This document shows, piece after piece, positions 3,308-61,493 of a DNA stretch of 64,000 bases (position 1 is the first letter of the stretch; each line of letters starts with the position of its first letter). Made by a program: the position numbers and the translations under genes. The notes under the pieces are model-generated. The model made no database searches. It was not told the origin of the DNA and was given only the letters and a program-made list of their open reading frames with translations. Origin of the DNA: Candidatus Bathyarchaeota archaeon (GTDB lineage Archaea > Thermoproteota > Bathyarchaeia > Bathyarchaeales > Bathyarchaeaceae); assembly GCA_020348945.1 (NCBI GenBank), contig CP070759.1:888936-952935 (forward strand). The letters are read 5' to 3'.

Positions 3308-4456
3308 TTAATCGATGTAACTTTCCATCTTTTCGTGTATCTGTATGCCTCTCTTTGACAGCTCCTTGAAGAAATCCAAATGGTCGAGACCTGCTTCTGG
3401 AGACAGAACTCCCTTGTTTTCTGTTTTTCCTTTTGCAATCAGCTGGGCTCCAATCGAAAGAGGTATTCCAACATTTTTGCCGTATGCGGATTTTCCATCC
3501 CACTCGCTCATCGATGGATGGTTGTTTTTAAGAGTGATCTTCGCGGGTTTACCATTTTTCTGTCCCACTACTGTAACAATTAAGCCGTAGGCCCAAACGG
3601 GGTTTTTCTTGGCTTCTGGAGTTTGGTAGAGAAAATTGTACATAAAGTCTACTGGTTTCACTTTCTTTCCGTTTACTTCAATTGGCTGTGTTTGGTAAAA
3701 GTTGTATTTCACCATCAATTTGACCAGTTCCATAGTTGCTGGAGGGAAGCATCCTTTTACTTCCACTTTCTGTAGGTCTGGAAACATTTTAGGTAAGGTT
3801 TGTGTTTCTGGATGAGGAATGTAGACAACTTCTTGTCTTCCAATCTGCTCGTGGAATTCTACTATTTGTGCTCCTTCGAAGGGATTAACCTTTATGAATT
3901 CGCCGTTTTTGTAGTAGACTCTTTCTTCTATAGCTGGGTCGAATTCCCAAAAGGTTGTGCGTAATAGACCAGGCGCAATAGCTGTGCTTCGGAAAGCAGC
4001 AAATGCGATCTGCACCTCTTCTGCACGATCAAGTTTACTTATTCCATACTTCGCCATTAGATTAGTTGTGCCAGGTGTAGCTCCGCAGCCAGCTATATAC
4101 GTGATTCCTATTTTTTTCGCCTCTTCGTCGAGGGCAAATTGATTCTCTTCAGCTGAAAGGTCTATGCCATTTGTTCCAGCTTTTATGCAAGCCTTTGTCA
4201 CGTTAAGGTCATACTTGAAAGGTAATGCACAGGCAACGACATCGAAGCCTTTCATTGCGCTAGCAAGTTTATTAACGTTGCTTGCGTCAACTCTAACAAC
4301 TGAAAGTCTCTCGTCTCCTAGTTTAGAGACGACCTCTTTAGCTCTATCAACAGCTATATCTCCTATAACGATCTCTGAAAAATCACTTTTGCTCACTAGG
4401 TCTTTCGTGGTTTCCAAACCCATCGCGCCAACTCCACCTAGAACCAGTATTCGCAT
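3308..4456 (-). CDS. saccharopine dehydrogenase-family NAD(P)-binding oxidoreductase
   Basis: N-terminal Rossmann motif MRILVLGGVGAMG. Length (382 aa) and C-terminal domain layout resemble saccharopine/carboxynorspermidine dehydrogenase family proteins. Confidence 0.8.
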   Translation of the reverse strand: MRILVLGGVGAMGLETTKDLVSKSDFSEIVIGDIAVDRAKEVVSKLGDERLSVVRVDASNVNKLASAMKGFDVVACALPFKYDLNVTKACIKAGTNGIDLSAEENQFALDEEAKKIGITYIAGCGATPGTTNLMAKYGISKLDRAEEVQIAFAAFRSTAIAPGLLRTTFWEFDPAIEERVYYKNGEFIKVNPFEGAQIVEFHEQIGRQEVVYIPHPETQTLPKMFPDLQKVEVKGCFPPATMELVKLMVKYNFYQTQPIEVNGKKVKPVDFMYNFLYQTPEAKKNPVWAYGLIVTVVGQKNGKPAKITLKNNHPSMSEWDGKSAYGKNVGIPLSIGAQLIAKGKTENKGVLSPEAGLDHLDFFKELSKRGIQIHEKMESYID

Positions 4457-4604: not shown

Positions 4605-4909
4605 GGAGACTTCGTTGATGCTTTTGTATCCGAAAACGCTTCTCCTGAACCGCAAAGAACATCGGTGATACATAGTGACTAGGTAATTCTGGTCCCACCA
4701 ACATCACCTAATATTAACATCGACATGTTGAGAACAATCAGAATTAGCAAGCTTTGCCTACTTAATTTACTTACAAAGCACATGCCTCCATCAAAAAATC
4801 GCGAGACAAACTTCTTTTTAACACAATAAAACGCTGACATCACCAACAAAACCCCTTCTCCGCTCCTCGCTTCAGATTTAGCGGATACAAAAGCATCAAC
4901 GAAGTCTCC
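4605..4909. repeat. perfect 28-bp inverted repeat pair (4605-4632 / 4882-4909) bracketing a 249-bp AT-rich segment
   Basis: GGAGACTTCGTTGATGCTTTTGTATCCG at 4605-4632; 4882-4909 is its exact reverse complement (checked base by base). Confidence 0.9.
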
Positions 4910-7133: not shown

Positions 7134-8234
7134 TTAACGTTTCTTATGTAGCTCAAGTAGCTTCATTACAGCCTCTCGATACACTTGAACGCTGTCCAAG
7201 TATTCCTGAATCCCTATGTGCTCGTTCGGTGTATGGTCTAGATGAGAGTCGCCGGGTCCGTATGTGACCACTGGTGCTTTCAAAGCGTTACCAAGGACGT
7301 TCATATCTCCGGTTCCCGTCTTTCTCAAGAGACGGGGAGAACTAGATCTTACCTTTCTAATTGCCCAAGATAGAGCCCGAACAAGAAGTGAACTCGAATC
7401 TACCTCAAAAGGCTCAATCAGATCCTCAATCTTCACTCTCACTGAGACTCCTAAATTAGCTGCCTGATATTGCATAACCCTTTTGCTGACTTCTTCGAAC
7501 ACTTGCCGGGAAGTAAGCGGAGGCGGAATTCGAAGGTCCATGTAAAGATGACATTTAGATGGAACCGTGGACGCCTCTTTGCCTCCCCGTATTTTAGTCA
7601 GACACGAGGTGATGGAGTAAAAGCGGCTTTCTAATTTTTCTTGAGGAAAATGAAGCTCTTGAATCACTTTCCAGATTTCAATAGCTTTTTCAACAGCGTT
7701 TTCAAAGAGCCAAGGAGCAGCGGAGTGTCCAGCCTGGGTCTCACAGGTTATTTTGAGATGTAGCCGCCCTTTGTATCCGATAGTTATGTTTTCAACGCCG
7801 CTTGGCTCTCCAAATATGGCATAGTCAGGGGAGATTCCGCTTTCTAAGAAGTGTTTAATGCCCTTGCCCTCACCTTCCTCGTCAACTACACCCACAACCA
7901 GAATTTTACCTGGGAGCCTTTTGATGAATGTGGATGATGCGATGATCATTGCCGCGAGAGATGTCTTTGCGTCAACGGCTCCTCGACCGTACAGTTGATT
8001 GTTTTCAACTCGAATGGGTATGCGCCCATGAACCGTGTCCATGTGCCCACATAGTAGAATAATCGGTTTTCCCCGGCCAGTTTCTCCAATTACGTTTCCA
8101 ACATCATCCGTCCATACATGGAAGCCTAAACGCTCCATCTCTGGAGCAAGAAAAACGGAAAGTTCTTCCTCTTCGCCGGATGGGCTGTAGATTTCTAGCA
8201 TCCTAGTTAGGAGGCTAACTGCGTAGTTGCTCAT
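7134..8234 (-). CDS. lysK: [LysW]-lysine/ornithine hydrolase (M20 peptidase, ArgE/LysK)
   Basis: M20 motifs LCGHMDTV, GRGAVDAKTS, VVDEEGEG. Last gene of the lysWXYZJK cluster. Confidence 0.85.
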   Translation of the reverse strand: MSNYAVSLLTRMLEIYSPSGEEEELSVFLAPEMERLGFHVWTDDVGNVIGETGRGKPIILLCGHMDTVHGRIPIRVENNQLYGRGAVDAKTSLAAMIIASSTFIKRLPGKILVVGVVDEEGEGKGIKHFLESGISPDYAIFGEPSGVENITIGYKGRLHLKITCETQAGHSAAPWLFENAVEKAIEIWKVIQELHFPQEKLESRFYSITSCLTKIRGGKEASTVPSKCHLYMDLRIPPPLTSRQVFEEVSKRVMQYQAANLGVSVRVKIEDLIEPFEVDSSSLLVRALSWAIRKVRSSSPRLLRKTGTGDMNVLGNALKAPVVTYGPGDSHLDHTPNEHIGIQEYLDSVQVYREAVMKLLELHKKR

Positions 8235-9414
8235 TTTCCCCTTCCTCTAGAATTGTGCCAAGAACACTGATTACTTTGTCAATTTGCTCCTTTTCTATAA
8301 CTAGAGGTGGTAGGAACCGCAATATGTTTCTTCCAGCGTCAAGGACAAGCACTCCCTTATCCATGGATTGGAGAATTATGTTCAAAATGTCAAATCGGAA
8401 TTCTACGCCAATCATGAGTCCTAGCCCCCGAACCTCTCTCACAATATTGTATCTGGCCTGAAGTTCCTTTAGCTTTTCTTTAAAGTATCGCCCATGCGAT
8501 GCCGCTCTCTCTGGAAGCCTCTCCTCAACCATCACGTCAATTGCGGCGCACGCAGCCGCACAGACGAGCGGATTTCCACTGAAAGTACTTGTGTGTTCCC
8601 CAAGTTTAAAGGAGGACATAATGTTCTCTTTCGCGATTGTTATGCCCAGTGGGAGACCGCCTGCCACCGATTTTGCGAGGCATAAAATGTCAGGAGTGAC
8701 GCCCCAGTGTTCACATGCAAACATCTTTCCAGTGCGGCCAAATCCCGTTTGAACCTCATCAAATATTAATAGGACATCCTCCTCATCACAAATTTCTCTC
8801 AGTTCTTGAAGGAAACCTTTCGGAGGAATTCTAACTCCTCCTTCTCCCCTGATAGGTTCCACGAGTATGGCGGCTGTTTTCTCTGTTATGGCTCCCCTTA
8901 TCTTTTCGAGGTTGTCGGGAGGAACGTGCTTAAAGCCAGGGACTAGAGGCTTGAATGGTTCACGATACTTTTTATTCCATGTTGCGGATAGGGCGCCCAT
9001 GGTTTTTCCGTGAAAGGCAGTCATCATTGCAATTATCTCAGGCGAACCAGAAAACTTGCGTGCTAATTTTATGGCACATTCAACTGATTCAGCGCCGCTG
9101 TTTCCGAGGAAAATTTTGTTGAGGCTTTTGGGGGTTATTTGAACGATCTTTTGCAGAAGCTTGGATCTCTCATCATTGTAGAAGGATCCGTGACAGGAGA
9201 TGAGTGTTTCCGCCTGTCTTTTTATGGCTTCTACAACTTTTGGGTGAGAGTGCCCAACGATGCATACTCCATAGCTGCCTGTGCAGTCTATGTATTCTTT
9301 GCCGTGGATGTCCCAGACTAGGGCTCCTCTGCCCCTGTTGAGAGTAACTGGTCTTTTGGCGTATACATTTGCCATAAGCCTTCTTTCAATGTCTATAACT
9401 TCTTGCTCATTCAC
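8215..9414 (-). CDS. lysJ: [LysW]-aminoadipate semialdehyde / acetylornithine aminotransferase
   Basis: Class-III aminotransferase motifs GSYGVCIVGHSHP, LIFDEVQTGFGRTG, CLAKSVAGGLP. Overlaps neighbours in operon fashion. Confidence 0.9.
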   Translation of the reverse strand: MNEQEVIDIERRLMANVYAKRPVTLNRGRGALVWDIHGKEYIDCTGSYGVCIVGHSHPKVVEAIKRQAETLISCHGSFYNDERSKLLQKIVQITPKSLNKIFLGNSGAESVECAIKLARKFSGSPEIIAMMTAFHGKTMGALSATWNKKYREPFKPLVPGFKHVPPDNLEKIRGAITEKTAAILVEPIRGEGGVRIPPKGFLQELREICDEEDVLLIFDEVQTGFGRTGKMFACEHWGVTPDILCLAKSVAGGLPLGITIAKENIMSSFKLGEHTSTFSGNPLVCAAACAAIDVMVEERLPERAASHGRYFKEKLKELQARYNIVREVRGLGLMIGVEFRFDILNIILQSMDKGVLVLDAGRNILRFLPPLVIEKEQIDKVISVLGTILEEGENEQLRS

Positions 9415-10216
9415 GGCTTATCACAGTGCCACACTTGTGTTCTAACGGTGAGGAGATGGGGAACTTCTTCAGCCCAAAGGAAATTATAACCTCGCCGACA
9501 CCTAGGTTGAGGGCCTCAATTGCCGCGTAAAGCTTGGTGGACATTCCTCCGCCGACCTTTGGAAGAATCTTCTCTACCTCTGAAATGTTCAGCTTTGGTA
9601 CTAACTTGTCGCCTAATGTTAAACCTTGAACATCCGTTAAGAGGATGAGCTTGTCTGCATTGAGAGATCCAGCAATGTGAGCTGCCATTCGGTCGGCATC
9701 CACGTTCAAGGGTTCGAATTTCTCGCTTACGGCAACGGGTGCTATAACTGGCACATACCCATTTTCTACAAGAAGCCACAGCAACTTAGCGTTAACTTTG
9801 CATATTTTCCCAGTGTATCCTCCATCAACAACTCTTTTCCTTCCACTCTTATCAACAATTACGATCCTTTTTTTCCGATTTGCCTGCACAAGACGACCAT
9901 CTAAACCAGATAATCCCACGCCAAGTACACCGTGACTCTGGAGGATAGAAACCATCTGCTTGTTAATTTTCCCCGCCATGACCATCGTGAATATTTCAAC
10001 CGTGTCCTTATCGGTGTATCGACTGCGAAATCCTTTGGGTGAGACTACAAATTCTTGTTTTTTCCCTAGTTTGGAGGCGATTTCGGTAACCTCGGCCCCT
10101 CCGCCGTGAACTATGGCAATTCTGTTTTCAGAGAGAAGATTCTTTATGTCGAGAATGAGTTCGGGTGAAGACTTCCACCTTAGGATGTTTCCTCCTACCT
10201 TAGTTACAATTAACAT
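9407..10216 (-). CDS. lysZ: [LysW]-aminoadipate kinase / acetylglutamate kinase family
   Basis: Amino-acid kinase fold motifs VTKVGGN, IAIVHGGG, VPVIAPVAV, LILLTDV. Confidence 0.9.
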   Translation of the reverse strand: MLIVTKVGGNILRWKSSPELILDIKNLLSENRIAIVHGGGAEVTEIASKLGKKQEFVVSPKGFRSRYTDKDTVEIFTMVMAGKINKQMVSILQSHGVLGVGLSGLDGRLVQANRKKRIVIVDKSGRKRVVDGGYTGKICKVNAKLLWLLVENGYVPVIAPVAVSEKFEPLNVDADRMAAHIAGSLNADKLILLTDVQGLTLGDKLVPKLNISEVEKILPKVGGGMSTKLYAAIEALNLGVGEVIISFGLKKFPISSPLEHKCGTVISRE

Positions 10217-10220
10217 TTGA

Positions 10221-11273
10221 TCACACCGGGTGAAAACCTATACTATCTAATCCGGCTCTTTCATCAACACCAAGAACCGCGTTGAAGCATTGGACTCCAT
10301 GACCAGATGCTCCTTTCATCAAGTTGTCGATAGCTGACATTACAACAAGCCTATTGACGTGAGAGTCCAATTCAAAGCCTATGTCACAGAAGTTGGATCC
10401 TATCACGACCTTGGGGTCAGGAAATCGATAGAGCCCCTTCTGATATCTGACGAGGCGTATGAAGGGGTCTCCTTGGTAGCGTGAACGGTAGATTTTCCAA
10501 ACATCTCGGACTGCTAAGGATTTTGTGAGGAAAACGTGAATTGTGGATAGAATCCCTCTAGCCATATTAACCGAGTGGGGAGAAAACGAGATTGTTACTG
10601 GTTTATCCGTTAGAAGGCTGAGTTCCTGCTCTATCTCGGCGATATGTCTGTGGCCAACTGGTTTGTAAGGCCTTACTCCTCCAAACTTTTCTGCATGATG
10701 AGATGCGGGCGAAGGTTTGCTGCCTGCACCTGAAGAGCCAATTTTCGTATCAACAACAACTCTATCTTTTTCTATGACATCAGCCTCCACAAGCGGGGCT
10801 AGCCCAAGGATTGTTGCAGCAGCCATACATCCTGCACACGCTATTAAGCGGGCGTTCTTCATCTCCTGTCGATGAAGCTCAGGCAGACCGTACACAGCTT
10901 CTTTCAGCAGGTCTGGATGAAGGTGTTTCCATCCGTACCAGTTAATGTAGTCATCGGGATTTTTCAAGCGGAAGTCCGCGCTCATGTCAATGACCTTTAA
11001 TCCAGCCTCGAGCAGTTTAGGGACAAGACTCATGGAAGCACCGTGAGGCATAGCCGTAAACACCAAGTCACAGTTCTCTGCGATATGATTGAAATCTAGG
11101 GGAACGAATTTTAGATTGGTGGCTCCTCGAAAGTTTGGGTGAACCAAAAAAACGAATTCGCCTGCGTGCTTGCGTGAAACAACCGTTGTAACTTCTGCGT
11201 GCGAATGGGAAAGTAACAGACGTAGAAGCTCCCCGCCGACGTATCCTGAGCCGCCGATAATTCCCACTCTCAT
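10221..11273 (-). CDS. lysY: [LysW]-aminoadipyl-phosphate / N-acetyl-gamma-glutamyl-phosphate reductase
   Basis: MRVGIIGGSGYVGGELLRLL Rossmann start, active-site block ACAGCMAAATILGLAPL, C-terminal IDNLMKGASG. Confidence 0.92.
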   Translation of the reverse strand: MRVGIIGGSGYVGGELLRLLLSHSHAEVTTVVSRKHAGEFVFLVHPNFRGATNLKFVPLDFNHIAENCDLVFTAMPHGASMSLVPKLLEAGLKVIDMSADFRLKNPDDYINWYGWKHLHPDLLKEAVYGLPELHRQEMKNARLIACAGCMAAATILGLAPLVEADVIEKDRVVVDTKIGSSGAGSKPSPASHHAEKFGGVRPYKPVGHRHIAEIEQELSLLTDKPVTISFSPHSVNMARGILSTIHVFLTKSLAVRDVWKIYRSRYQGDPFIRLVRYQKGLYRFPDPKVVIGSNFCDIGFELDSHVNRLVVMSAIDNLMKGASGHGVQCFNAVLGVDERAGLDSIGFHPV

Positions 11274-11279
11274 TTCATC

Positions 11280-12464
11280 TCACGCTTCCAGTCCTATGAC
11301 GCTCTTGGCACACTTGAGTAGCGTTACTGCCAAGTTGACTTTAGCAACCAGCCTAGTTTGTTCCCAGAATTCGGGGCAGGAGTTTGCTTCATGGAACATT
11401 ATATTTTGCTTCCCTTTTTCCATGCTTTCCTCGATTATCCTCGTAACGTTTCCATATGCCTCTGAGTTCATGTATTCTTGAAAGGCTTTTTCCAGTTTTA
11501 CATTCCAAGTAGAAAAATCTTCTTTTTTAGTTCTGTCTCTTTTAACCTTCTTCACTGCATCAAAAGGTAGCATGAGTTTTTCGAACTCTGATCTAACGTA
11601 GTCGTCATCAACTATCTTATCTTCACCTATATTGAGCATAGCGTCCAACGCTAAAATCCAGACTTTACTGCCTTTTCCAATTGCCTCACCACATTTTATC
11701 GCCATGTCCCGGATGGAGGGTGGCAAGTTGACTCCGAACACCATGTTGCCCAAATAAGTGTTTGTTCTAAAATCTTTAAACCCAGCTCTTGCTAACGCCT
11801 TTGGATAGCAGTATGGTGCCCTCCCATGTTCTTTTGCAATCACTATCCTCAGGTCGTAAAACCACTTTGGAACAAACTCTTGAGCGAGAACACCTGTTGG
11901 GTTCAGTATTGTGGATTTAGTCTTCTGGAGAACCTTTAGAAGTTCATCTTGTGTATTAGCGAGCATAACCTCCTTTCCATGAGTACCAGCGTCCGGTTTA
12001 ACAACGATATCCCTGCCAAGTTCCTGTTGCATCAAATCAGCTATGTCTTCCTCGTTATGGAATTCCCGCCCATTCACCCCGTGTTCGTGAGCGTCGCACG
12101 GAACATAAACAGTTTTGGGCAGCGGTATTCCTGCTTTCCAGAAATGGAGCAGGGTTCTTAATTTGCTGAAGCAAACATATTCAACATAGGAGGAGTTTAT
12201 TACATTTTTACCGAATGCTTCCAGTATATGGACTGCAAAGAGCCTGCGGTTTTTGCTCTGCGTCCTGTTTAACACTACATCAACGTCTTTAACAATTTTA
12301 GAATAGTCTTTTCCCTTGCTTCTAAAACTGTATCCACTTTTATCAGCACGAATAGAAACCTTATGAAATGGTAAATATACCAGATTTATTCCCATTTCTC
12401 TTGCGGTTAATTTTATTCCCAATTCATCGGTTTCAGAACGCTCGTACAAAATTGCTATACTCAT
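11280..12464 (-). CDS. lysX: LysX/ArgX-like ATP-grasp ligase (amino-group carrier protein ligase) with a large insertion
   Basis: The LysX-like N-terminus MSIAILYERSETDELGIKLTAREMGINLVYLP, the ATP-grasp core VVKPDAGTHGKEV and the Mg-binding block MFHEANSCPEF are present. About 90 aa are inserted before the last block. Sits between lysW and lysY. Start is ATG 12464 or 12479. Confidence 0.75.
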   Translation of the reverse strand: MSIAILYERSETDELGIKLTAREMGINLVYLPFHKVSIRADKSGYSFRSKGKDYSKIVKDVDVVLNRTQSKNRRLFAVHILEAFGKNVINSSYVEYVCFSKLRTLLHFWKAGIPLPKTVYVPCDAHEHGVNGREFHNEEDIADLMQQELGRDIVVKPDAGTHGKEVMLANTQDELLKVLQKTKSTILNPTGVLAQEFVPKWFYDLRIVIAKEHGRAPYCYPKALARAGFKDFRTNTYLGNMVFGVNLPPSIRDMAIKCGEAIGKGSKVWILALDAMLNIGEDKIVDDDYVRSEFEKLMLPFDAVKKVKRDRTKKEDFSTWNVKLEKAFQEYMNSEAYGNVTRIIEESMEKGKQNIMFHEANSCPEFWEQTRLVAKVNLAVTLLKCAKSVIGLEA

Positions 12465-12574
12465 CTTCTTCTCTCGCATCTATTGTTTGACGCTGTCTCA
12501 GAATTCCAAGAATCTTTTCGTATTAAAGCCTTGGCATTTCGAATCTTTGAGAGGTGTCTAAGAGAAATATCTAG

Positions 12575-13622: not shown

Positions 13623-14897
13623 ATGAAATTGAAAAATGGATACCTAGATGAACATGGAAGAAACATTCTGACAAGCTTAAGCAAAGAAGGGGTATTTCCA
13701 AGCCCATACAATTTTGTTGCTTATAACTGTCCTCCAACTGACGGATACGTTATACATGACAGCACTTTGAGAGAGGGAGAACAAACACCAGGTGTCATAT
13801 TCACTATAGGGGACAAGAAAAAGATTGCAGAAAAGTTAGACGCAGTGGGAATACAGCAAATAGAAACAGGATTTCCAGTTGCCTCAGAAAAACAGAGAAA
13901 AGGAGTCAAAGCTCTGGTAAACATGGATCTAGATACCGAAATATTCTGCTTTGCTAGAGCCAAACACGAAGATATAGACGCCGTTGCGGAAACGGGTGCT
14001 GACGGAATTATAATATCTTTCTCAATTTCTGAGCATCATAGGAGACACAAGTTCCACGGAATGACTAAAGAAGAGTACCTGAACAGACTAGATGACACGA
14101 TCAGTTACGCAGAGAAATATGGACTGTTTATTGTATATACTGCAGAAGATTCCACTCGGGAAAACGACTTAGACTTCTTGAAAAAAGCCTTTAAAAAAGC
14201 TGAGGAAGCTGGAGCAAACAGAGCTAGAATCGCTGATACTTTAGGATGTATAAACCCAAGTGGAATAGCGTATCTTGTAAGAGAAACAAAAAGTGTTCTA
14301 GACATTCCCCTAGAAGTGCATTGTCACAACGATATGGGACTGGCTTTAGCGAACTCACTTGCAGCTGTTGAGGCTGGAGCGTCAACAATATCAGCTACTG
14401 TAAACGGTCTCGGAGAAAGGTCCGGGGTTACACCCACAGAAGAAGTCATTGCTGCATTACACGTGATATTTGGGATAAAAACATTTGACATGAGCCAGTT
14501 AACCGAATTGTCAAGATTCGTTGAAAGCATTACTGGAGTAAGGACGGCTCCTAATAAACCAGTAACTGGTGAAAACGCGTGCACACATTGTTCGGGAATC
14601 CATCAACACGGAATTCTTATGAATCCCACAACTTATGAAGTCTATCCTCCTGAACTTGTGGGGCAAAAGAGAAGAGTGTACATAGATGAACTTTGCGGAA
14701 GCCACGGTATTTTATACGTTGCAGAAAAGAAGCTTGGAATGAACATCTCTAGAGACACAGCGCGAAAAGTCATTTCAAAGATAAAAAGGGCCTATTTGGA
14801 AGAGGATAGGCAGAGTGCTTATACACTAACTGAGCTTGAAAAGTTGATTCTTGAGGCTCAGAGCGCGGAGGCTGGTGGAACTGCAGCCGTTCCCTAA
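13623..14897 (+). CDS. homocitrate synthase / 2-isopropylmalate synthase family (DRE-TIM)
   Basis: HDSTLREGEQTPGV, IADTLGC, EVHCHNDMGLALANSLAAVEAGA. Context next to the lys cluster favours homocitrate synthase. Start ATG 13623 (AGAGG upstream) or 13593. Confidence 0.85.
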   Translation: MKLKNGYLDEHGRNILTSLSKEGVFPSPYNFVAYNCPPTDGYVIHDSTLREGEQTPGVIFTIGDKKKIAEKLDAVGIQQIETGFPVASEKQRKGVKALVNMDLDTEIFCFARAKHEDIDAVAETGADGIIISFSISEHHRRHKFHGMTKEEYLNRLDDTISYAEKYGLFIVYTAEDSTRENDLDFLKKAFKKAEEAGANRARIADTLGCINPSGIAYLVRETKSVLDIPLEVHCHNDMGLALANSLAAVEAGASTISATVNGLGERSGVTPTEEVIAALHVIFGIKTFDMSQLTELSRFVESITGVRTAPNKPVTGENACTHCSGIHQHGILMNPTTYEVYPPELVGQKRRVYIDELCGSHGILYVAEKKLGMNISRDTARKVISKIKRAYLEEDRQSAYTLTELEKLILEAQSAEAGGTAAVP

Positions 14898-35545: not shown

Positions 35546-35884
35546 ATGAGTCGTGTTCCCCTCGTTGACCTTGCAATCAAGTATTTCAGACAGCGAGGCT
35601 ACAAGATAGAGAAGAACACTGTTTTAGAAGGATTTTCCGGGCTCCCACACAGCTTTGACCTCGTTATCCGCAAGGGCAAAGAACGGCAATTAGTCTGGAT
35701 CAGAGACTGGAGACGAACGGTTGGCATCAACATGGTGATAAAAATGGACAAGGCTTCGGCAGATGTTGGTTTTGTAAACCCAGTGATGGTTTCTGGGAAG
35801 TTTAGCGGACACGCCAAGGCATATGCCAACCGCCGAGGCGTCACGTTATTAATGAAACGTCAAATCCTGCGGGGACTAGGATAG
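35546..35884 (+). CDS. hypothetical protein, possible restriction-endonuclease-like fold
   Basis: 112-aa ORF: LAIKYFRQRGYKIEKNTVLEGFSGLPHSFDLVIRKGKERQLVWIRDW. Resembles small archaeal Mrr-cat-like proteins, but the catalytic motif is not clear. Confidence 0.5.
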   Translation: MSRVPLVDLAIKYFRQRGYKIEKNTVLEGFSGLPHSFDLVIRKGKERQLVWIRDWRRTVGINMVIKMDKASADVGFVNPVMVSGKFSGHAKAYANRRGVTLLMKRQILRGLG

Positions 35885-38645: not shown

Positions 38646-38745
38646 TGGTGCTCCGGCCGGGATTTGAACCCGGGTCGGCGGCTTTCTCTCCAGTGTTGTA
38701 GAGGACGAGAGGCCGCTATACTTGACCGGACTATACTACCGGAGC
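38646..38745 (-). tRNA. tRNA-Glu(CUC) with a 22-nt canonical (37/38) intron; CCA encoded
   Basis: Minus-strand read: GCUCCGG UA GUAU AGUCCGGUCAA GUAU A GCGGC CUCUCG[UCCUCUACAACACUGGAGAGAA]A GCCGC CGAC CCGGG UUCAAAU CCCGG CCGGAGC A CCA. The GCUCCGG acceptor is typical of archaeal tRNA-Glu. Confidence 0.85.
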
Positions 38746-38750
38746 GTATG

Positions 38751-38823
38751 TGGACCGGGCGGGAGTTGAACCCGCGACCTCCGCCGTGCGAGGGCGGCAT
38801 TCATGCCACTGAACTACCGGCCC
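38751..38823 (-). tRNA. tRNA-Ala(CGC)
   Basis: GGGCCGG UA GUUC AGUGGCAU GAAU G CCGCC CUCGCAC GGCGG AGGUC GCGGG UUCAACU CCCGC CCGGUCC A. G3:U70 identity pair present. No encoded CCA. 5 nt upstream of tRNA-Glu on the same strand. Confidence 0.9.
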
Positions 38824-38920
38824 ATTTACGTTTCAAATCATAAGTCTAATTAAACGTTTTTGGATGTTCTAGGTAGGATCTGGTTCTGTTGTTAAAATGC
38901 GGTTCTTTTTGGATTCTAAT

Positions 38921-39036
38921 GATGGTGGGATGTTGGAAGCAATGTTTTTTTCTGATAGTAGTGGTGTGATTGGTGAGGTTGAGAGGGAGTGTAGTTTTGG
39001 GTCCCGTTAGAAAAAATGTTTTGGGGCCCAATTCTC
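38921..39036 (+). repeat. interspersed repeat family, copy A (upstream of the tRNA-Ala/Glu unit)
   Basis: Shares with 57539-57650 a 20-nt identical block (38930-38949 = 57548-57567) and a 41-nt identical core GAGTGTAGTTTTGGGTCCCGTTAGAAAAAATGTTTTGGGGC (38987-39027 = 57596-57636). Confidence 0.85.
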
Positions 39037-39736
39037 TGTGGTTGATGCAGTGTAGTTGGGTCACGTGTACTTCTATCAGTGTTTTCTGGTTGTTGATGTT
39101 TGAAGTTGGATTCTGGAGAGTTTTGAAAATTAAGATGGATTCTATTGAATATTGGACGAGCAGGTTGGAGGGACAGGATTAGGTTTGTGTTGGAAACATT
39201 TTTATAGTGTTTGGTTTATATTAGTTGGTTCTGGTGGTTGGGGAGAAAGATGGTTTCTACCTGTTAGAACCTTATTTTCAGCTCCTTTCACTTTCAAAAA
39301 ATCTCCTCAATCGCCATATCTTGAATATGCAAGGCAACACGATGAACTGGTTTAAAGATTGGGAAAATAGAGACACTGGAAGGCTAACCAGCTATATACC
39401 GAAATGCTTATAACAAGAGGGTTACACTACGTATTTGGTGGTTTAGGAGAGAAGCTAGTTATCATGTGTTGAAATCTTAATCCCTTTCTCCTTTCGCTCT
39501 TTCCTATGCTCTCCTTGACCACCCCCAACATCCACAAACACATTTCCCGACACACAATCACTATTCGTCGGTGTGTAACAAATTCGTTTTTTATTTGTGT
39601 GGGGGGACCTAAAGTTTTAACCCAAACCCAAAAATGCGCGAACACAAGTTTATAAGCAACTCTACAGTAAGCATCCCTTAGAATTAGTATCTTGGGCGAA
39701 AACTAGTTCTTTTAGTGAATAGGAGGTGCAACATGA

Positions 39737-39889: not shown

Positions 39890-39989
39890 GCTCACAAGCT
39901 AACATCTATTCTTAGTACACAATCTTTTTCATATGCACATTTTTTTTGTGTGCCTTAAATTATTAATACAACTTAAAATGGAATGATAC

Positions 39990-41728: not shown

Positions 41729-42247
41729 TTTCATTTCAAGTTGCATTAATAATTTAAGGAAAAGAATTACAGGGATATGTAAGGCGATGTTAAGTTGAAA
41801 GAATACGTATGTGTGCAAGTTGGTCATCATAAGAATGTCGGTAAAACAATTGAGGAACACCAAAGGAATGGCTGGCGTCTACACACCTATCAAGCCCAAG
41901 GATCTCCAACCCTTGTCAATCATTACTTACTGTTTGAGAGAGGCGAATGAGTAAGACCGACGCTTCTCAATTTCCCCTCTTTTTTCTATACACGCATTCG
42001 GTTGCATTAATACATATTTATCTTTATTTACTTACGACTTTCTCCCACCCCTATAGAGAAGAAAAAAGAGTAGTAAGCTCTTATGATGAGAATAACACTA
42101 TTTTTGATGGTTATCTATCGGTTTAACCTTACAAATCCTCTCTCTCCATAAAAGGCGAAAAAATCAAAACCTAAACTATTGAAGCCAAGTCATAGCGAAA
42201 CCAAAAGAAGGTTTCTCCTTAAATCTTTAATGCAACTTCAAATGAAA
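41729..42247. repeat. IR-bounded 519-bp element (31-bp imperfect terminal inverted repeats, 28/31 match)
   Basis: TTTCATTTCAAGTTGCATTAATAATTTAAGG (41729-41759) versus the reverse complement of 42217-42247, TTTCATTTGAAGTTGCATTAAAGATTTAAGG. An extra GTTGCATTAATA copy lies near 42003. Confidence 0.75.
41795..41950 (+). CDS. DUF4177-like small protein (51 aa, TTG start)
   Basis: Own translation (L/M)KEYVCVQVGHHKNVGKTIEEHQRNGWRLHTYQAQGSPTLVNHYLLFERGE*. The xEYK-V ... GWRL ... LLFER pattern resembles DUF4177. Confidence 0.4.
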   Translation: MKEYVCVQVGHHKNVGKTIEEHQRNGWRLHTYQAQGSPTLVNHYLLFERGE

Positions 42248-42335: not shown

Positions 42336-42716
42336 CTATTCGATTCCCCATCTTTTGGTGACCTTGACTAGTATGAAGATTACGAAGGTTACGATGGCGA
42401 AGGTTATTAGATGAACTAGGAAGTCTCCTATCCCGAATATTTGCTGAAAGATCTCTATCTGATAGGTTGCTAGATCACCAAGACCTGGTAATGCCAAGCC
42501 AATAACTGGCATCACTAAATCCTTAACTAATGCTTGAACTAGGTTGCCAAGATAAAGAGCCATGATGAAAGCAACAGCGAGACCCATGACCTTATACTTT
42601 GAAAGGAAGTCCAAGAATTCATTCCAGAGTCCTTTTGGTGGCGATGGAGGAGGTTTCGTTTCAAGCAACTCTCTGATTCGCTTTAGCTCTTCCAACATTT
42701 CATCTTCCTTAGACAT
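42336..42716 (-). CDS. mscL: large-conductance mechanosensitive channel MscL-like
   Basis: WNEFLDFLSKYKVMGLAVAFIMALYLGNLVQALVKDLVMPVIG aligns with the E. coli MscL N-terminal helix/TM1 ([41 protein letters not shown]). A second TM and a basic tail follow. Confidence 0.7.
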   Translation of the reverse strand: MSKEDEMLEELKRIRELLETKPPPSPPKGLWNEFLDFLSKYKVMGLAVAFIMALYLGNLVQALVKDLVMPVIGLALPGLGDLATYQIEIFQQIFGIGDFLVHLITFAIVTFVIFILVKVTKRWGIE

Positions 42717-42933
42717 GAACCATCACAATCCCACAGTCATTGAATTTCTGTATAAGTTTTGTGGAATATCAAGCAAGATGAAGTAAACACTACTCCGGTA
42801 CTGCTTAACATTAGACCTGATTGAGCTCTATCATCTCGGTGCTGGCTTCTTTCCCACTAAATGGTACCGACTGACACCGCGGGGGCGTGCCATTATAGAA
42901 TGCTGCAGAGCCGAGGGCCTGAAACTGAGTAGA

Positions 42934-43075
42934 TTTGGGACCCAATAGAAAAAATACTTGACCCAATTCCCGCTACTGACGTAACATAGCTGGATCATAT
43001 AGTGAAAAGGTATGTTGAAAACAGCATTTTTCAGAAAAACAGCTTGCGCTAAAGTGGGGAGAAGGGGAGCTATCT
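42934..43075 (+). repeat. interspersed repeat family, copy L (abuts the stop codon of the pentapeptide-TIR gene)
   Basis: 42934-42973 (TTTGGGACCCAATAGAAAAAATACTTGACCCAATTCCCGC) resembles the 41-nt core of copies A/B. 42991-43075 is a direct repeat of 44652-44737. Confidence 0.8.
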
Positions 43076-44410
43076 CTATGTGCGTTTTAGCCCTCTCAAC
43101 AGCTTGCGGAAAGAGTTGTTATACATTGATTCATCGGTGAAGTCCGCATAGTTTCGTTCCAGAAGGGAGGGTTTCAGATCTCGTTTCCCTCGTTTAACCG
43201 AGAAGCCATTCTCTTTCCATAGGTTGTCCAGAGATATCGGCACCATCTTGTCCGGGTCTTCGTCTATCTGCTCTTCAATCTCCTTTAGAACTCCGTCTCG
43301 CACAAGAGCCTCAGCAGAGCATAGTATAATCATCTTCTCTGCCTCCCGTCTCTTCTCAATGATTTCTCCCCAGACCTTTTTGCCTGGAGTGGCGTCCATA
43401 GAGTAGAGCCAGCAAGATACTCCTCTCTCTTTCAGATCTTTCACCAGCCTCTCTGCAAAGCCTAGGTCTGGCTGTCCATAGCAGACGAAGCAGGTGCAGT
43501 ATTGAACCTCTGCTAGGATTCTTGGCAACGTCTCAAGAAGCTCTTTAGGTATGCCTGAGTTAAGGAAAAAGGTCTTCAGCTCGGACGTGAAGCAGTTTCC
43601 TGACCTCCTAAATGAAATTATTAGCGTGTTGACATCTATGTTGGATGGTCCCTCGTGTTTCACAGTTTCAAGCCCCACACCATGCGCCAGATTACAACCT
43701 CCTAATGTTGTAATACTCATTATTGCGCCCGTAAGGTTGACATTAGAAGCGTCAGATTCTAAGAGTTTGGCGCCTCTAAGGTCGGTATTGGAGAGGTTAG
43801 TCTCTAAGAGCTTGATAGAATCTAAGGTGGCACGTATGAGGCTGGTTCCAGAAAGGTCGGCTTTAGAGAGGTTAGCATCACTAAGGTCAATTCCAAAGAG
43901 ATCGGCCCCAGAACAAATCACCCCAGAAAAGTTGGCACCATAAGCGCTGGCGAAAGAAAGGTCGGCTTTAGAGAGGTTAGCCCCAGAAAGATTAGCTCTA
44001 AAGAGAGTGGACTTTTCGAGGCTGGCCCCGGAAAGATTAGCTTTAGAGAGGTTAGCTTTATGTAGATTGACTTGGACGAGTTCGGCTTCAGAAAGATTGG
44101 CCCCAGAAAAGTCGGCACCATAAGCTTTGGCCATAGAAAAGTTGACTTTAGAGAGATTGGCCCTAGAAAGATTGGCTTCCATGATGTAGGCCCCGACGAG
44201 GTTGGCCCCAGAAAGATTAGCTTTAGAGAGGTTAGCCCCAATAAGATTGGCTCCAAAGAGGTTAGCTGCGGTGAGGTTGGCCCCACTGAGGTCAGCGTCA
44301 GGGAGTTGGGCTTGAAAAAGATCGAGAGTTTGTTCTGGGTGCTTTTGCCTCCACTCTTCAATACAAGCGGCTCCTTTCCGCACTATTGCCACATGCTCTG
44401 GGTTCGCCAT
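43076..44410 (-). CDS. pentapeptide-repeat protein with C-terminal TIR domain
   Basis: About 45 A(D/N)LxX pentapeptide repeats (ANLSGANLSKADLS...). The C-terminal YCTCFVCYGQPDLGFAERLVKDLKERGVSCWLYSMDATPGKKVWGEIIEKRREAEKMIILCSAEALVRDGVLKEIEEQI fits the TIR pattern (F-(I/V)-S-Y ... D ... A ... L ... G ... W ... PG ... I ... S ... S ... E). Confidence 0.85.
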   Translation of the reverse strand: MANPEHVAIVRKGAACIEEWRQKHPEQTLDLFQAQLPDADLSGANLTAANLFGANLIGANLSKANLSGANLVGAYIMEANLSRANLSKVNFSMAKAYGADFSGANLSEAELVQVNLHKANLSKANLSGASLEKSTLFRANLSGANLSKADLSFASAYGANFSGVICSGADLFGIDLSDANLSKADLSGTSLIRATLDSIKLLETNLSNTDLRGAKLLESDASNVNLTGAIMSITTLGGCNLAHGVGLETVKHEGPSNIDVNTLIISFRRSGNCFTSELKTFFLNSGIPKELLETLPRILAEVQYCTCFVCYGQPDLGFAERLVKDLKERGVSCWLYSMDATPGKKVWGEIIEKRREAEKMIILCSAEALVRDGVLKEIEEQIDEDPDKMVPISLDNLWKENGFSVKRGKRDLKPSLLERNYADFTDESMYNNSFRKLLRGLKRT

Positions 44411-44623
44411 ATGAATCACCCATTTTAGAACGTAGCACATTATTAACTCTGTGTGCTATTTATGATTTTATTCATTTTCTCGTGATGCTTGAATGCCTAT
44501 ATGCTTCTTTCTTTCAGAAAAAAGGGAATTGCGGAGGACATCTCCATTTCATAGATCTTCAAGAAGAATCCGTGAAGTTCTAGGTGAATTCTATAAATAG
44601 CAGTTATTTTCTTCGTCTCGAGA

Positions 44624-44737
44624 TTTTGACCCCAGAGTCCTTTGTCATATTTGGATCATATAGCGCAGAGGTATGTTGAAAACAGGTTTTTCTCTGAAAA
44701 ACTGCTTGCGCCAAAAGAGGGGAGAGGGGGCTATATG
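44624..44737 (+). repeat. interspersed repeat family, copy R (upstream of the pentapeptide-TIR gene, downstream of the FAH gene)
   Basis: 44652-44737 aligns with 42991-43075 (hand alignment roughly 80-85% identity with one 2-nt indel). Shared blocks: TGGATCATATAG, GGTATGTTGAAAACAG, GCTTGCGC, GGGGAGA. Confidence 0.8.
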
Positions 44738-44874
44738 CTGTATAGAAAGCGAAGGAGATGACTTGGTGTTAACCTAATTCACGTTCCGCATAGAATGAGT
44801 TGCGTGCCTAGTGGTCATACCAGTATATTTGTCTAAAACACGAGGTTTGCTTCGTTTCCAGTTCAAGTGTCCAC

Positions 44875-57261: not shown

Positions 57262-57468
57262 TGGTCGGGCGGGCAGGAGTTTCATGGAGGTTTTCCTCCA
57301 TTTTGAATTCGCCGAGCTAAAAGCTTGTTTTAAGCTCTCCTGCGACAACCCGGTGTCTGTGCGCTTGATAGGCTGGGTGAGCATCTACCTAGGGTAGGCG
57401 TCTACAGCGTCTCCGTCAGTCACGGTTGTGGCTGGCTCGGAAGCTCTACCAAGCTGAGCTACCGCCCG
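57262..57468 (-). tRNA. tRNA-Tyr(GUA), predicted to carry four introns (about 130 nt in total); CCA encoded
   Basis: Minus strand: perfect acceptor CGGGCGG/CCGCCCG with the C1:G72 pair and A73 (archaeal Tyr identity), D arm GCUC AGCUUGGUA GAGC. Removing plus-strand 57409-57437, 57355-57401, 57308-57338 and 57279-57301 gives CGGGCGGUAGCUCAGCUUGGUAGAGCUUCCGGCUGUAGACCGGGUUGUCGCAGGUUCAAAUCCUGCCCGCCCGA (74 nt). This has a canonical anticodon arm UCCGG-CUGUAGA-CCGGG and T arm GCAGG-UUCAAAU-CCUGC. Confidence 0.75.
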
Positions 57469-57538
57469 TTGCCCGACCAGAATGTTACTGAAGAAAGTTT
57501 CTCATTTATACATTTCGTTGTCTTGTTTGGAGTTTCAT

Positions 57539-57718
57539 GATAGTAGAATGTTGGAAGCAATGTTTTTCTTTGAAAGTAGCGTTGAGATTGAGAAGGAGTG
57601 TAGTTTTGGGTCCCGTTAGAAAAAATGTTTTGGGGCTCAATCCCCGCGAATGACGTAGCCATTGACACGGCACATTTGGACCATATCCCAAACCCAAAAA
57701 CAGATTGTGCGTGCACGC
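57539..57718 (+). repeat. interspersed repeat family, copy B (upstream of tRNA-Tyr)
   Basis: See copy A. Additional blocks are shared with copies L/R (TGACGTA, ATTTGGA(C/T)CATAT, AAAAACAG-TTG-GCG) and with 39621-39640 (CCCAAACCCAAAAA). Confidence 0.85.
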
Positions 57719-57817
57719 AAATGACTGCGTTTGTTCTGAAATTAGAACATTGCTTGTTCGGGTGTTCTAATCCGTAGCATTATAAGAGACGAAAAACAAG
57801 AACTTAAAGGGGTTTAT

Positions 57818-60581: not shown

Positions 60582-61493
60582 TTGAAGATGCTTTACTACC
60601 ACATTTATACTAAATATACGGCGAAAAATGGAAAAAAGAAAAAATCTTTCATGTTTAATTACTCGAAAAAAGAAATGGAAAGACTGTTTGCCGTTCCCTA
60701 CATGAAAAATAAAGCCGTTCCAATTTTTGGGGGATTTGTTCCTGCATCAGCCATAGATACTATTCGCATTTTCAAATCCAAAAAGCCATTCGAAGAAATA
60801 ATTCTTCCAGATGGAATATCCTCTGTTGAAAATCCACAAGAGCGTGTGTCTTACATTGTGGATTGCATTAGTTTAAGGAAAGTGCAAGGTGTTGATGACT
60901 CCACACTTACTTTTATTACTTCACCACCACAGAAAGAAGTAAAACCGATTAAATCACTCACTAAACCACTTGGCAAAAAGGAAAAGGTATTCATAGTTCA
61001 CGGTAGAGACGAAACCCAAGCATCGAGGCTTCAAAAATACTTGACAAAAACGTTGAAAATTGACGCTACAATGTTTGAAAACTTCAAGGAAAAAAGCGGT
61101 AGCAACACAATAATTGAGCAACTTGAATATATTAAGGACAACGTGGGTTATGCCTTTGTTATTGTTACGCCAGACGATTTAGGTTGCCTACGTGAAAATA
61201 TTGACAAATGCAGAACCACCATGCTGACAGGCAAGAAAAATATTACTGTAAAGAGCGTTTGTGACATTCTTGATAATCTTAATGCGAGGGCACATCAAAA
61301 CGTTGTTTTTGAACACGGACTTTTCACAGGTGCTTTAGAAAGAGACAGAGTATGTTGCCTTCTTCAAAAAGACACTAAAGAGAAGCCAAGCGACATTGAC
61401 GGAATCCTTTATGTGGGTTTCAAAAAATCTGTGAAAGAAACATTCAGTGAAATAACTGAAAAACTGAAAAAGGCTGGGCTAGTCAAAACTTAA
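60582..61493 (+). CDS. protein with C-terminal TIR-like nucleotide-binding domain (CAP12/PycTIR-type, COG4271-like) and an unknown ~130-aa N-terminal domain
   Basis: KVFIVHGRDETQASRLQKYL...TIIEQLEYIKDNVGYAFVIVTPDDLG...ARAHQNVVFEHGLFTGALERDRVCCLLQKDTKEKPSDIDGILYV follows the family pattern VFIVHG-x-D ... TIIEKFE ... FAVVLLTPDD ... RARQNVIFELGYF-x-GKLGR-x-RV ... PSDL-x-G as I remember it. Confidence 0.75.
   Translation: MKMLYYHIYTKYTAKNGKKKKSFMFNYSKKEMERLFAVPYMKNKAVPIFGGFVPASAIDTIRIFKSKKPFEEIILPDGISSVENPQERVSYIVDCISLRKVQGVDDSTLTFITSPPQKEVKPIKSLTKPLGKKEKVFIVHGRDETQASRLQKYLTKTLKIDATMFENFKEKSGSNTIIEQLEYIKDNVGYAFVIVTPDDLGCLRENIDKCRTTMLTGKKNITVKSVCDILDNLNARAHQNVVFEHGLFTGALERDRVCCLLQKDTKEKPSDIDGILYVGFKKSVKETFSEITEKLKKAGLVKT

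Follow-up and report, generated by a model that had tools for sequence, protein, structure and literature searches.

The locus and the two copies beside tRNA genes

The stretch analysed here, 64,000 nucleotides (nt) of contig CP070759.1 of a Candidatus Bathyarchaeota archaeon (positions 888,936 to 952,935, forward strand; hereafter the window), carries transfer RNA (tRNA) genes on the minus strand at two places, and upstream of each lies a copy of the same short intergenic element. This element represents a lineage-restricted (Bathyarchaeia) family of non-coding interspersed repeats that has not been described before. Stacking of its copies defines a full element of about 200-260 nt which consists of an L unit, a core, an R unit and a purine-rich tail. 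The two tRNA loci are composed of the following features.

38646..38823, minus strand: tRNA transcription unit with tRNA-Ala(CGC) at 38750-38823 and an intron-containing tRNA at 38646-38745 (ARAGORN; Rfam tRNA model, 63.6 and 51.6 bits)
38905..39065, plus strand: copy A, an L unit (38905-38969, matched by the unit profile) plus core (nhmmer family profile, E=1e-39)
38987..39027, plus strand: 41-nt block in copy A, identical to 57596-57636; it holds GGGTCCC and TAGAAAAAAT
57262..57468, minus strand: tRNA-Tyr(GTA) with four introns; after splicing of its five collinear exons by hand, ARAGORN calls tRNA-Tyr (gta) with a perfect cloverleaf
57521..57715, plus strand: copy B, an L unit (57521-57592), the core and a degenerate R unit with internal deletions (nhmmer, E=6e-46)
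57596..57636, plus strand: second 41-nt identical block, in copy B, an exact match

The left end of copy A is located 82 nt upstream of tRNA-Ala, and its right side degenerates past about 39065. Copy B precedes tRNA-Tyr by 53 nt and a DUF2330 gene by about 100 nt. The tRNA-Ala(CGC) gene and its intron-containing neighbour are 4 nt apart and apparently form one transcription unit. In tRNA-Tyr, introns of 29, 47, 31 and 23 nt follow positions 30, 37, 53 and 59; the unspliced gene was missed by ARAGORN and by Rfam, which detects only the D-arm.

The initial annotation had described shared blocks of 41 and 20 nt with a 9-nt indel between them, at distances which amount to 98-213 nt from tRNA-Ala and 71-182 nt from tRNA-Tyr. 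All of this holds. The 41-mer GAGTGTAGTTTTGGGTCCCGTTAGAAAAAATGTTTTGGGGC has two exact matches in the window (38987-39027 and 57596-57636, both on the plus strand), while 100 shuffles gave none, even at 3 mismatches, and the 20-mer ATGTTGGAAGCAATGTTTTT is exact at 38930-38949 and 57548-57567; chance would not be expected to produce either block. The two copies align with 81.5% identity over about 130 nt including the 9-nt indel. Among 146 aligned nt there are 30 mismatches, and the perfect runs measure 42 and 20 nt. When mismatches are placed randomly, a run of at least 41 nt arises in 0.04% of trials, none of which has a second run of at least 20 nt. Because random placement so rarely yields such perfect runs, the sequence shared by A and B is, judged by its pattern of mismatches, under constraint and not a chance match, as had been supposed from the 41-nt block.

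Further copies in the window and the displaced end of copy A

The 27-nt sub-block GTAGNTTTGGGNCCCNNTAGAAAAAAT of the 41-nt block is also kept in copy C of the window and in a copy from another genome (L001). In degenerate form it gives a third match in the window at 42929-42955, which lies within one of the following additional features.

42886..43085, plus strand: copy C, in which a partial L unit is followed by the core (42925-42985), an R unit in full (42985-43055) and the purine-rich tail (nhmmer, E=4e-52)
44626..44745, plus strand: copy D, truncated at its 5' end, so that the end of the core is followed by an R unit and the tail (nhmmer E-values 1e-13 for the whole-element profile and 3e-26 for that of the R unit)
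39618..39650, plus strand: A', distal remnant (TAACCCAAACCCAAAAATGCGCG) located about 85 nt upstream of a zinc-ribbon gene (39737); its match is the degenerate R side of copy B
39066..39617, no strand assigned: separator of copy A and A', about 550 nt, G+T-rich in its first half, GC skew +0.4 to +0.5

Copy C is positioned between the genes for MscL (42336-42716, minus strand) and for a pentapeptide-repeat/TIR protein (43076-44440, minus strand); its tail abuts the stop codon of the latter, and the MscL start is 170 nt leftward. Thus, the related core noticed earlier beside the TIR gene is real and forms part of a whole copy. Copy D, which is absent from the initial annotation, emerged from a repeat search as a recurrence of the right-hand module of copy C on the far side of the TIR gene, between the stop codon of an FAA-hydrolase gene (44875) and the TIR gene start (44440). 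All four copies of the window (4/4) are on the plus strand.

Copy A is probably separated from its own right end by about 550 nt of other DNA. The 17-nt distal block CCCAAACCCAAAAA occurs at 39618-39634 and 57684-57700 with one mismatch, and a comparison restricted to the two right flanks, which matches it to the right side of copy B at E=0.001, makes such a split, proposed before, plausible. For the separator, Rfam gave no match, and the fetched loci contain no homologue except the motif CCCAAACCCAAA. About 450 nt between 38800 and 39300 are G+T-rich on the plus strand (GC skew +0.4 to +0.53, AT skew to -0.39); this stretch, C/A-rich and G-poor on the tRNA strand, reaches past copy A.

Anatomy of the element

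The unit structure was derived from alignments of eight R units and six L units. The L unit comprises about 60 nt with the consensus TATTTGGAGCCTAATAAAGGTGGAATGTTGAAAACAAGATTTTCTCAGG. It is followed by a core of 45-110 nt with TTGGGWCCCAAT, AGAAAAAAT, a second CCCAAT and TGACGTAGC (also written TTGGGWCCCAAT-AGAAAAAAT-...GACCCAAT). The R unit, likewise about 60 nt long, is a diverged direct repeat of L with the pattern TCATATTTGGATCATATAGCGAAAAGRTATGTTGAAAACAG-NN-TTTTCTCAGAAAAAC, and the purine-rich tail behind it reads TGCTTGCGCCAAAAGAGGGGAGAGGGGGCTATA. The two units of an element are 82-200 nt apart, and this interval is conserved. A 37-nt block of the R unit is near-invariant in eight copies from at least five assemblies, and ATGYTG is invariant in 14/14 units.

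These modules are found in varying combinations. L, core and R are joined in copies C and L001, L and core with a degenerate or displaced R in A and B, and L, a short middle part and R in L015 and L018a; R stands alone in copy D (44626-44745), L016, L017 and L023. Every copy is intergenic (11/11 loci). Being multi-copy, intergenic, non-coding and modular, the element has the properties of the BOX/BIME-like class: it is a modular dispersed intergenic repeat and a new family of a known general kind.

A repeat family of Bathyarchaeia

The family is dispersed and present in several genomes. The nhmmer table lists 11 independent loci, four in the window and seven in other Bathyarchaeia contigs, including the metagenome-assembled genome (MAG) BA2. 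A search with the core pattern found no GTDB genome (0) and one metagenome contig, L001 (Ga0315314_1000049), whose copy is the most complete of all and lies upstream of a TatD-like gene. The R-unit pattern retrieved from the GTDB genomes two contigs of MAG CAYFTS01 (L015, L016) and Bathyarchaeota BA2 LIHK01 (L017). When the translated module was compared with protein collections, 24 tiny singleton "proteins" were obtained which have YLDHIAKRYVEN in common; two of them led to L018-L022, a single locus with two copies seen in five samples, and to L023. The best named homologues of the proteins encoded next to the copies in the window are from Candidatus Bathyarchaeota or Bathyarchaeia.

Virus and plasmid collections gave no match in three specific viral pattern scans and in blastn searches against phages and plasmids. 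A looser two-unit pattern picked up 24 viral loci, of which 0 match the family profile, and these were rejected as members. A literature search by motif string and keywords returned no relevant publication on the motif.

Two peculiarities of individual copies may be mentioned here. The full copy at L001:1-320 is situated 85 nt from the end of a 169-kb contig, which is consistent with an assembly break at or near the repeat. At L018:2393-2530, about 600 nt upstream of the main copy, an odd second copy consists of an L-type unit, the core fragment TTTGTGACACAA and the inverted tail motif TATATAGCCCCCCCTCCCCC.

RNA and protein as possible products

The element is not a known or a structured RNA. 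Only two tRNAs of the window pass the Rfam gathering threshold, and relaxed Rfam scans over and beside the copies (B, L001 and the whole copy-A region) gave chance matches or nothing. RNAalifold applied to both strands of the four full copies and the eight R units yielded -0.4 to -2.2 kcal/mol with 0-1 compensatory pairs, the power of the covariation analysis being limited to 8 sequences. The divergent non-coding RNA suggested at the outset as one possible function thus finds no support, as a structured RNA, in Rfam or in covariation. A C/D-box small RNA (sRNA) was also dismissed, since strings resembling boxes C and D were seen by eye in copy A only and not in B or L001.

A small protein-coding gene was rejected because no single frame is kept among the copies, and their open reading frames (ORFs; 13-134 amino acids, aa) have unrelated ends. 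The minus strand and the LDHI frame were likewise excluded as coding by stops and frame changes between copies. The 24 singleton ORFs measure 26-92 aa and have only YLDHIAKRYVEN as a common part. Because the T-run varies in length, the DNA behind it is translated in any of the three frames, depending on the copy (SEKLLAPK, LRKTACAK, QKNSLR*). An exhaustive profile search of 1.84 billion protein representatives produced 26 mini-ORFs and no real family.

Each unit could instead be a promoter which drives a short unstructured sRNA or a leaderless micro-ORF; the latter would read MLKTxFSQKNCLH... in R units and, in A and B, MLEAMFF...ECSFGSR in L units. The tRNA flanks would then simply be permissive. 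In line with this idea ATG(Y)TG is invariant in 14 units, with TTG/CTG, a synonymous difference, as the sole change, and the 37-mer ends near the expected leaderless start or transcription start site, downstream of a TATA-like CATATTTG/TCATATAG. According to our own reading of the sequences, the frame MLKTxFS.K is held for about 13 codons in 6/8 R units; the A/B indel of 9 nt is in frame, several replacements between A and B are conservative (D/E, V/I, R/K), and leaderless-type promoter-plus-ATG repeats exist in the window. By contrast, these ORFs vary from 13 to 57 aa without conserved stops, T-run length changes shift the frame between copies, and it is the promoter-like part that is conserved above the supposed product. 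Counting by hand gave 2 synonymous and 5 non-synonymous differences between A and B and thus a dN/dS of about 0.75, which gives no sign of purifying selection on the A/B peptide and is, taken by itself, uninformative. Together with the lack of RNA structure, this makes a micro-ORF or sRNA unlikely in our view.

Gene context and tRNA bias

The L side faces the 5' end of an opposite-strand gene in 8-9 of the 10 loci that could be judged. At 4/11 loci this gene encodes a tRNA: Ala and Tyr in the window, Leu(CAA) in L016, which was recognised after removal of a D-region intron, and Pro(CGG) in L023. In all four cases the tRNA gene is encoded on the opposite strand and has the same orientation relative to the element, at a distance of 53-135 nt. 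Otherwise the L side faces the genes for MscL and the TIR protein, in BA2 a gene of 376 aa and in L018 a small membrane ORF (read by eye). On the R side there are two arrangements. Either a plus-strand gene starts 75-240 nt away (zinc-ribbon gene for A', DUF2330, TatD, PAC2, NrdD, 258-aa gene), or the stop codon of a convergent gene is 0-130 nt away (TIR, FAA hydrolase, ORFs in L015 and L016). In C, D, L015 and L016 the R side comes directly after the stop codon of the gene upstream, which is co-directional.

The element is a dispersed repeat, yet tRNA flanks are over-represented among its sites. At a background of 3%, the binomial tail is p=2e-4 for 4/11 loci and p=0.03 for 2/9 loci when the discovery loci are left out; based on these values the bias to tRNA 5' flanks is real but modest, and it is not exclusive. 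Of the link to tRNA genes put forward in the initial annotation, the bias therefore stands. Specificity for tRNA genes does not, as seven loci are without a tRNA and C and D lie beside the MscL and TIR genes.

This pattern bears on the idea, put forward in the initial annotation, of an upstream control element linked to tRNA genes. Its palindrome TTGGGWCCCAA, A-tract and CCCAAT half-sites would then form a binding platform for a regulator of stable-RNA and housekeeping promoters. Such a role would agree with the position upstream of four tRNA genes of different specificity in the same orientation, with the block-wise constraint in the core and with the L side facing a gene 5' end at 8-9/10 loci. 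It is at odds with the 7/11 loci that lack a tRNA, with a distance to the gene start that varies from 50 to 190 nt, with the R-only copies L016, L017 and L023, which have no core although two of them are tRNA-linked, and with close relatives in which the orthologous genes lack the element. Moreover, only 3 tRNA genes are in the window and few in the other fetched loci. We consider a dedicated control element of this kind quite unlikely.

Age, turnover and mobility

The copies of the window are mutually 60-79% identical, and copy C is as close to L001, from another genome, as it is to A or B. Loci with orthologues of the DUF2330 and radical-SAM genes (L003-L014; proteins 77-90% identical) do not carry the element, so that conservation by position could not be used as a measure. 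The only comparable relative is L007, whose DUF2330 protein is 90% identical. In its locus, which is rearranged rather than an empty site, the 3' end of a different tRNA is joined to what appears, by eye, to be a unit remnant, AAAAAACAAGACTCTCC. Given the low identity of the copies and the orthologous loci without the element, the family is old, and its copies undergo gain, loss and rearrangement; it cannot be regarded as a young burst or as a constant part of any one promoter. The young mobile repeat considered earlier is contradicted both by the 60-79% identity and by the apparent rearranged remnant in L007.

A selfish non-autonomous mobile element without host function, similar to a MITE (miniature transposable element with inverted repeats) or a palindrome-associated transposable element (PATE), would explain the blocks as transposase sites and the tRNA bias as target choice or safe haven. 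The repeat is indeed dispersed, varies between relatives and has partial and mosaic copies. The direct repeats L and R, which have a bulged A/T hairpin (CAGTATTTTCTCAGAAAAACTG), recall the ends of IS200/IS605 insertion sequences, all four window copies have the same orientation, and the L001 copy is 85 nt from a contig end. A MITE proper was rejected since no inverted repeat pairs the ends of any window copy, the ends being direct repeats. The flanks show no recognisable target duplication. When the IS200/IS605 (PATE) type was examined, the bulged hairpin was present in most R units and in none of the L units of A and B, i.e., it is not conserved in L units. The gene tables of the fetched loci list no TnpA, TnpB or other transposase, nor was one seen in the window, and the viral and plasmid collections gave no match. 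Finally, the window copies are old (60-79%), and one block is near-invariant across genera. A purely selfish element is thus regarded as very unlikely.

The proposal of an integration target is, for targets of the usual kind, not supported by the data. No part of the three window tRNAs recurs in the window, so the repeat does not contain tRNA sequence. Pfam searches of the window, which covered the larger ORFs (mostly of at least 110 aa) and several smaller ones near the copies, detected no integrase, transposase, cas or orc1/cdc6 gene. An attachment (att) site of an integrative element at a tRNA gene was consequently dropped, as there is neither tRNA overlap nor an adjoining integrase. A related possibility is that the copies are attL/attR-type scars of elements that entered beside tRNA genes, with A, C and D bracketing a 4-kb low-GC segment and the TIR gene. 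Direct copies do bracket small hypothetical genes and this defence-type gene, the region from the radical-SAM gene to the MscL gene is wholly different in the relative L012, and tRNA-half scars are found nearby in relatives. Nevertheless, attachment scars seem highly improbable: the repeat is free of tRNA sequence and is on the 5' rather than the 3' side of tRNAs, the window has no integrase, the copies differ by 30-40%, and single copies are located upstream of housekeeping genes such as PAC2, NrdD and TatD.

Remnants resembling tRNA 3' halves (TGGTGCYCCGGCCTAGATTCAAAT..., then TTTAAAT) occur in relatives downstream of the radical-SAM gene or beside the MscL gene (L011:2320-2370, L012:13795-13840 and 14040-14085, L013:3880-3915). 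The one in L013 is about 550 nt from an intact intron-containing tRNA. These remnants look like scars of old integrations at that tRNA.

Two further candidates were rejected. A CRISPR array or mini-array does not agree with two units per element at a conserved interval, with the lack of cas genes and with the lack of a CRISPR direct-repeat (CRISPR-DR) match in the elements. A replication origin with origin recognition boxes was dismissed since the copies are all direct and spread over 19 kb and the window has no orc1/cdc6; the profiled stretch of 37.5-45.5 kb, which includes copy A but not copy B, shows no skew switch.

Possible function of the conserved blocks

We propose that copies A and B belong to a modular Bathyarchaeia repeat whose conserved blocks exert their effect as DNA, and we assign this interpretation a probability of roughly 45%. 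The blocks would be archaeal transcription signals or binding sites for proteins, and the element as a whole would serve as a portable terminator/promoter, an insulator-like cassette in 5' intergenic DNA. Duplication or transposition may have carried it into 5' intergenic regions, preferentially into the 5' flanks of tRNA genes. Selection would keep the signal blocks while the linkers drift, and a sequence-specific protein would be the obvious missing partner of the invariant 37-nt block.

Several patterns point in this direction. Each unit has a TATA-like octamer (TCATATAG, CTAATAAA) with ATGYTG 10-20 nt downstream. Read by eye, the reverse complement of the 41-mer resembles a promoter of the TFB recognition element (BRE)/TATA type directed towards the tRNA (GCCCCAAAAC-ATTTTTTC-23 nt); it also resembles the tRNA-Ala promoter CCAAAAACG-TTTAATTA, which is 23 nt before the tRNA. 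A likeness to the tRNA-Tyr promoter CGAAATGTATAAATGAGAAAC is seen in CGAAAAGATATGTTGAAAAC, a part of the R unit. Runs of T4-T7, which signal termination in archaea, show a several-fold enrichment on either strand, with 1-3 runs of T5 or longer per strand in copies of 0.1-0.25 kb compared with a window average of 2.6-3.0 per kb. On the tRNA strand, the stretch from the 41-mer to the tRNA has no T5 run and only 8-12% G. Taken together, these patterns fit a portable terminator/promoter or insulator cassette.

A number of points weigh against this proposal. The promoter and terminator assignments are patterns recognised by eye, and the TATA-like boxes are near-symmetric, which leaves their direction ambiguous. 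The absence of the element from orthologous loci of close relatives argues against an indispensable regulatory role at any given gene, and an identity of only 60-79% within the genome is unlike a recent transposition burst. A mobilising enzyme, terminal inverted repeats and a target-site duplication were not found. The tRNA bias is a matter of small numbers, as the census covers about 490 kb of Bathyarchaeia sequence with loci found via the element itself. Finally, a terminator/promoter does not need 37 invariant bases, and this excess points to a sequence-specific protein or to an RNA function.

In a more far-reaching model, an archaeal non-autonomous terminator/promoter cassette would home to sites 5' of tRNA genes (Ala, Tyr, Leu and Pro in the present data) and to other promoters, its orientation being fixed, and the 37-nt block would be the recognition site of a putative Bathyarchaeia DNA-binding or recombination protein. 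At present we regard it as distinctly improbable.

Comparison with known systems

The closest known class is that of the bacterial modular repeats, namely BOX (boxA-boxB-boxC) of pneumococci, the BIME/REP mosaics of E. coli and the Correia elements of Neisseria, which are likewise short, non-coding, intergenic, modular, dispersed and variable between relatives. These families carry or create promoters, terminators and protein-binding sites, which for the Bathyarchaeia element we infer. The present element differs by its archaeal host, the absence of sequence similarity, a modest apparent copy number and the bias to tRNA 5' flanks. It has neither the stable G+C-rich palindrome of REP nor the terminal inverted repeats of Correia elements, and its 37-nt block is conserved across genera.

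Small intergenic repeats of archaea are also represented by the Sulfolobus MITEs SM1-SM4 and by palindrome-associated elements of the IS200/IS605 type, the latter having similar direct-oriented ends with an imperfect hairpin. In contrast to these, no inverted termini, target duplication or transposase partner were found for the present element, its hairpin is A/T-weak and not kept in L, and its copies are old.

The yeast elements Ty1/Ty3 and the Dictyostelium elements TRE5/DGLT-A share with it a position upstream of tRNA genes of many specificities, at a short variable distance and in a compact genome. They are autonomous retroelements guided by RNA polymerase III factors, whereas the present element has no coding capacity and no evidence of transposition. 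Archaea have only one RNA polymerase, and the comparison with eukaryotic tRNA targeting is no more than an analogy.

Finally, a layout in which a conserved "spacer" separates two repeat-like units is shared with degenerate mini-CRISPRs (creA of CreTA modules) and solitary CRISPR repeat units. The R unit contains a small hairpin CATAT...RTATG followed by UUGAAAAC, which recalls the 8-nt CRISPR RNA handle AUUGAAAC/G. In contrast to these systems, cas genes are absent from the window, Rfam gives the elements no CRISPR-DR match at E<=10, the units measure about 60 nt, similarity continues past the supposed repeat end, and a conserved "spacer" is common to many dispersed copies.

Other features of the window and of related contigs

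A 35-38-nt repeat, CCTTAAATTATTAATRCAACTTNAAATGRAA, occurs three times in the window (39946-39983, plus; 41729-41766, reverse complement; 42213-42247, plus). With its TATA-like box and an ATG about 23 nt on, it resembles a leaderless promoter-plus-start common to small paralogous genes in the low-GC segment from A to C. Two TIR genes, 43076-44440 (minus strand; pentapeptide-repeat/TIR_2, between two direct R-unit copies) and 60582-61493 (plus strand; CAP12/Pycsar-type), are possible defence genes, and an Mrr_cat-like ORF is present at 35546-35884. A perfect 28-nt inverted repeat (4605-4632 and 4882-4909, arms 249 nt apart) lies between two minus-strand ORFs. Housekeeping context is provided by a LysX/ArgX-type amino-acid biosynthesis cluster at 7134-12479 (minus strand), which encodes a RimK-like ATP-grasp protein, a semialdehyde dehydrogenase, an amino-acid kinase, an aminotransferase and an M20 peptidase.

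A GCGCGC-centred motif (TGCGCGCGCA and variants) was observed in A/T-rich intergenic DNA, often near gene starts, at 57705-57720 and 39636-39645 of the window and at L007:115-125, L009:260-275, L011:2385-2395, L012:17490-17510, L013:3970-3980 and 4310-4320, and L016:1440-1450. In MAG CAYFTS01, a thiamine pyrophosphate (TPP) riboswitch at L016:460-572 (plus strand; 61.3 bits, above the gathering score) is located upstream of a 174-aa ORF.

Implications

Bathyarchaeia are abundant sediment archaea which are almost entirely uncultured, and to our knowledge nothing is known about their non-coding DNA. The family described here supplies a searchable motif set, the 37-mer of the R unit and the 27-mer of the core, for a lineage-specific repeat. 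It also provides two warnings for genome annotation: the element is mis-called as small hypothetical proteins (the YLDHIAKRYVEN ORFs), and multi-intron tRNAs near it are missed by ARAGORN and Rfam. The family further offers a testable association of an archaeal repeat with the 5' flanks of tRNA genes. Should the conserved blocks prove to serve as transcription signals or as a binding site for a protein, they would count among the first cis-elements defined for Bathyarchaeia. If the homing cassette turns out to be real, it would be, by analogy, a counterpart among prokaryotes of the retroelements which target tRNA genes in yeast and Dictyostelium.

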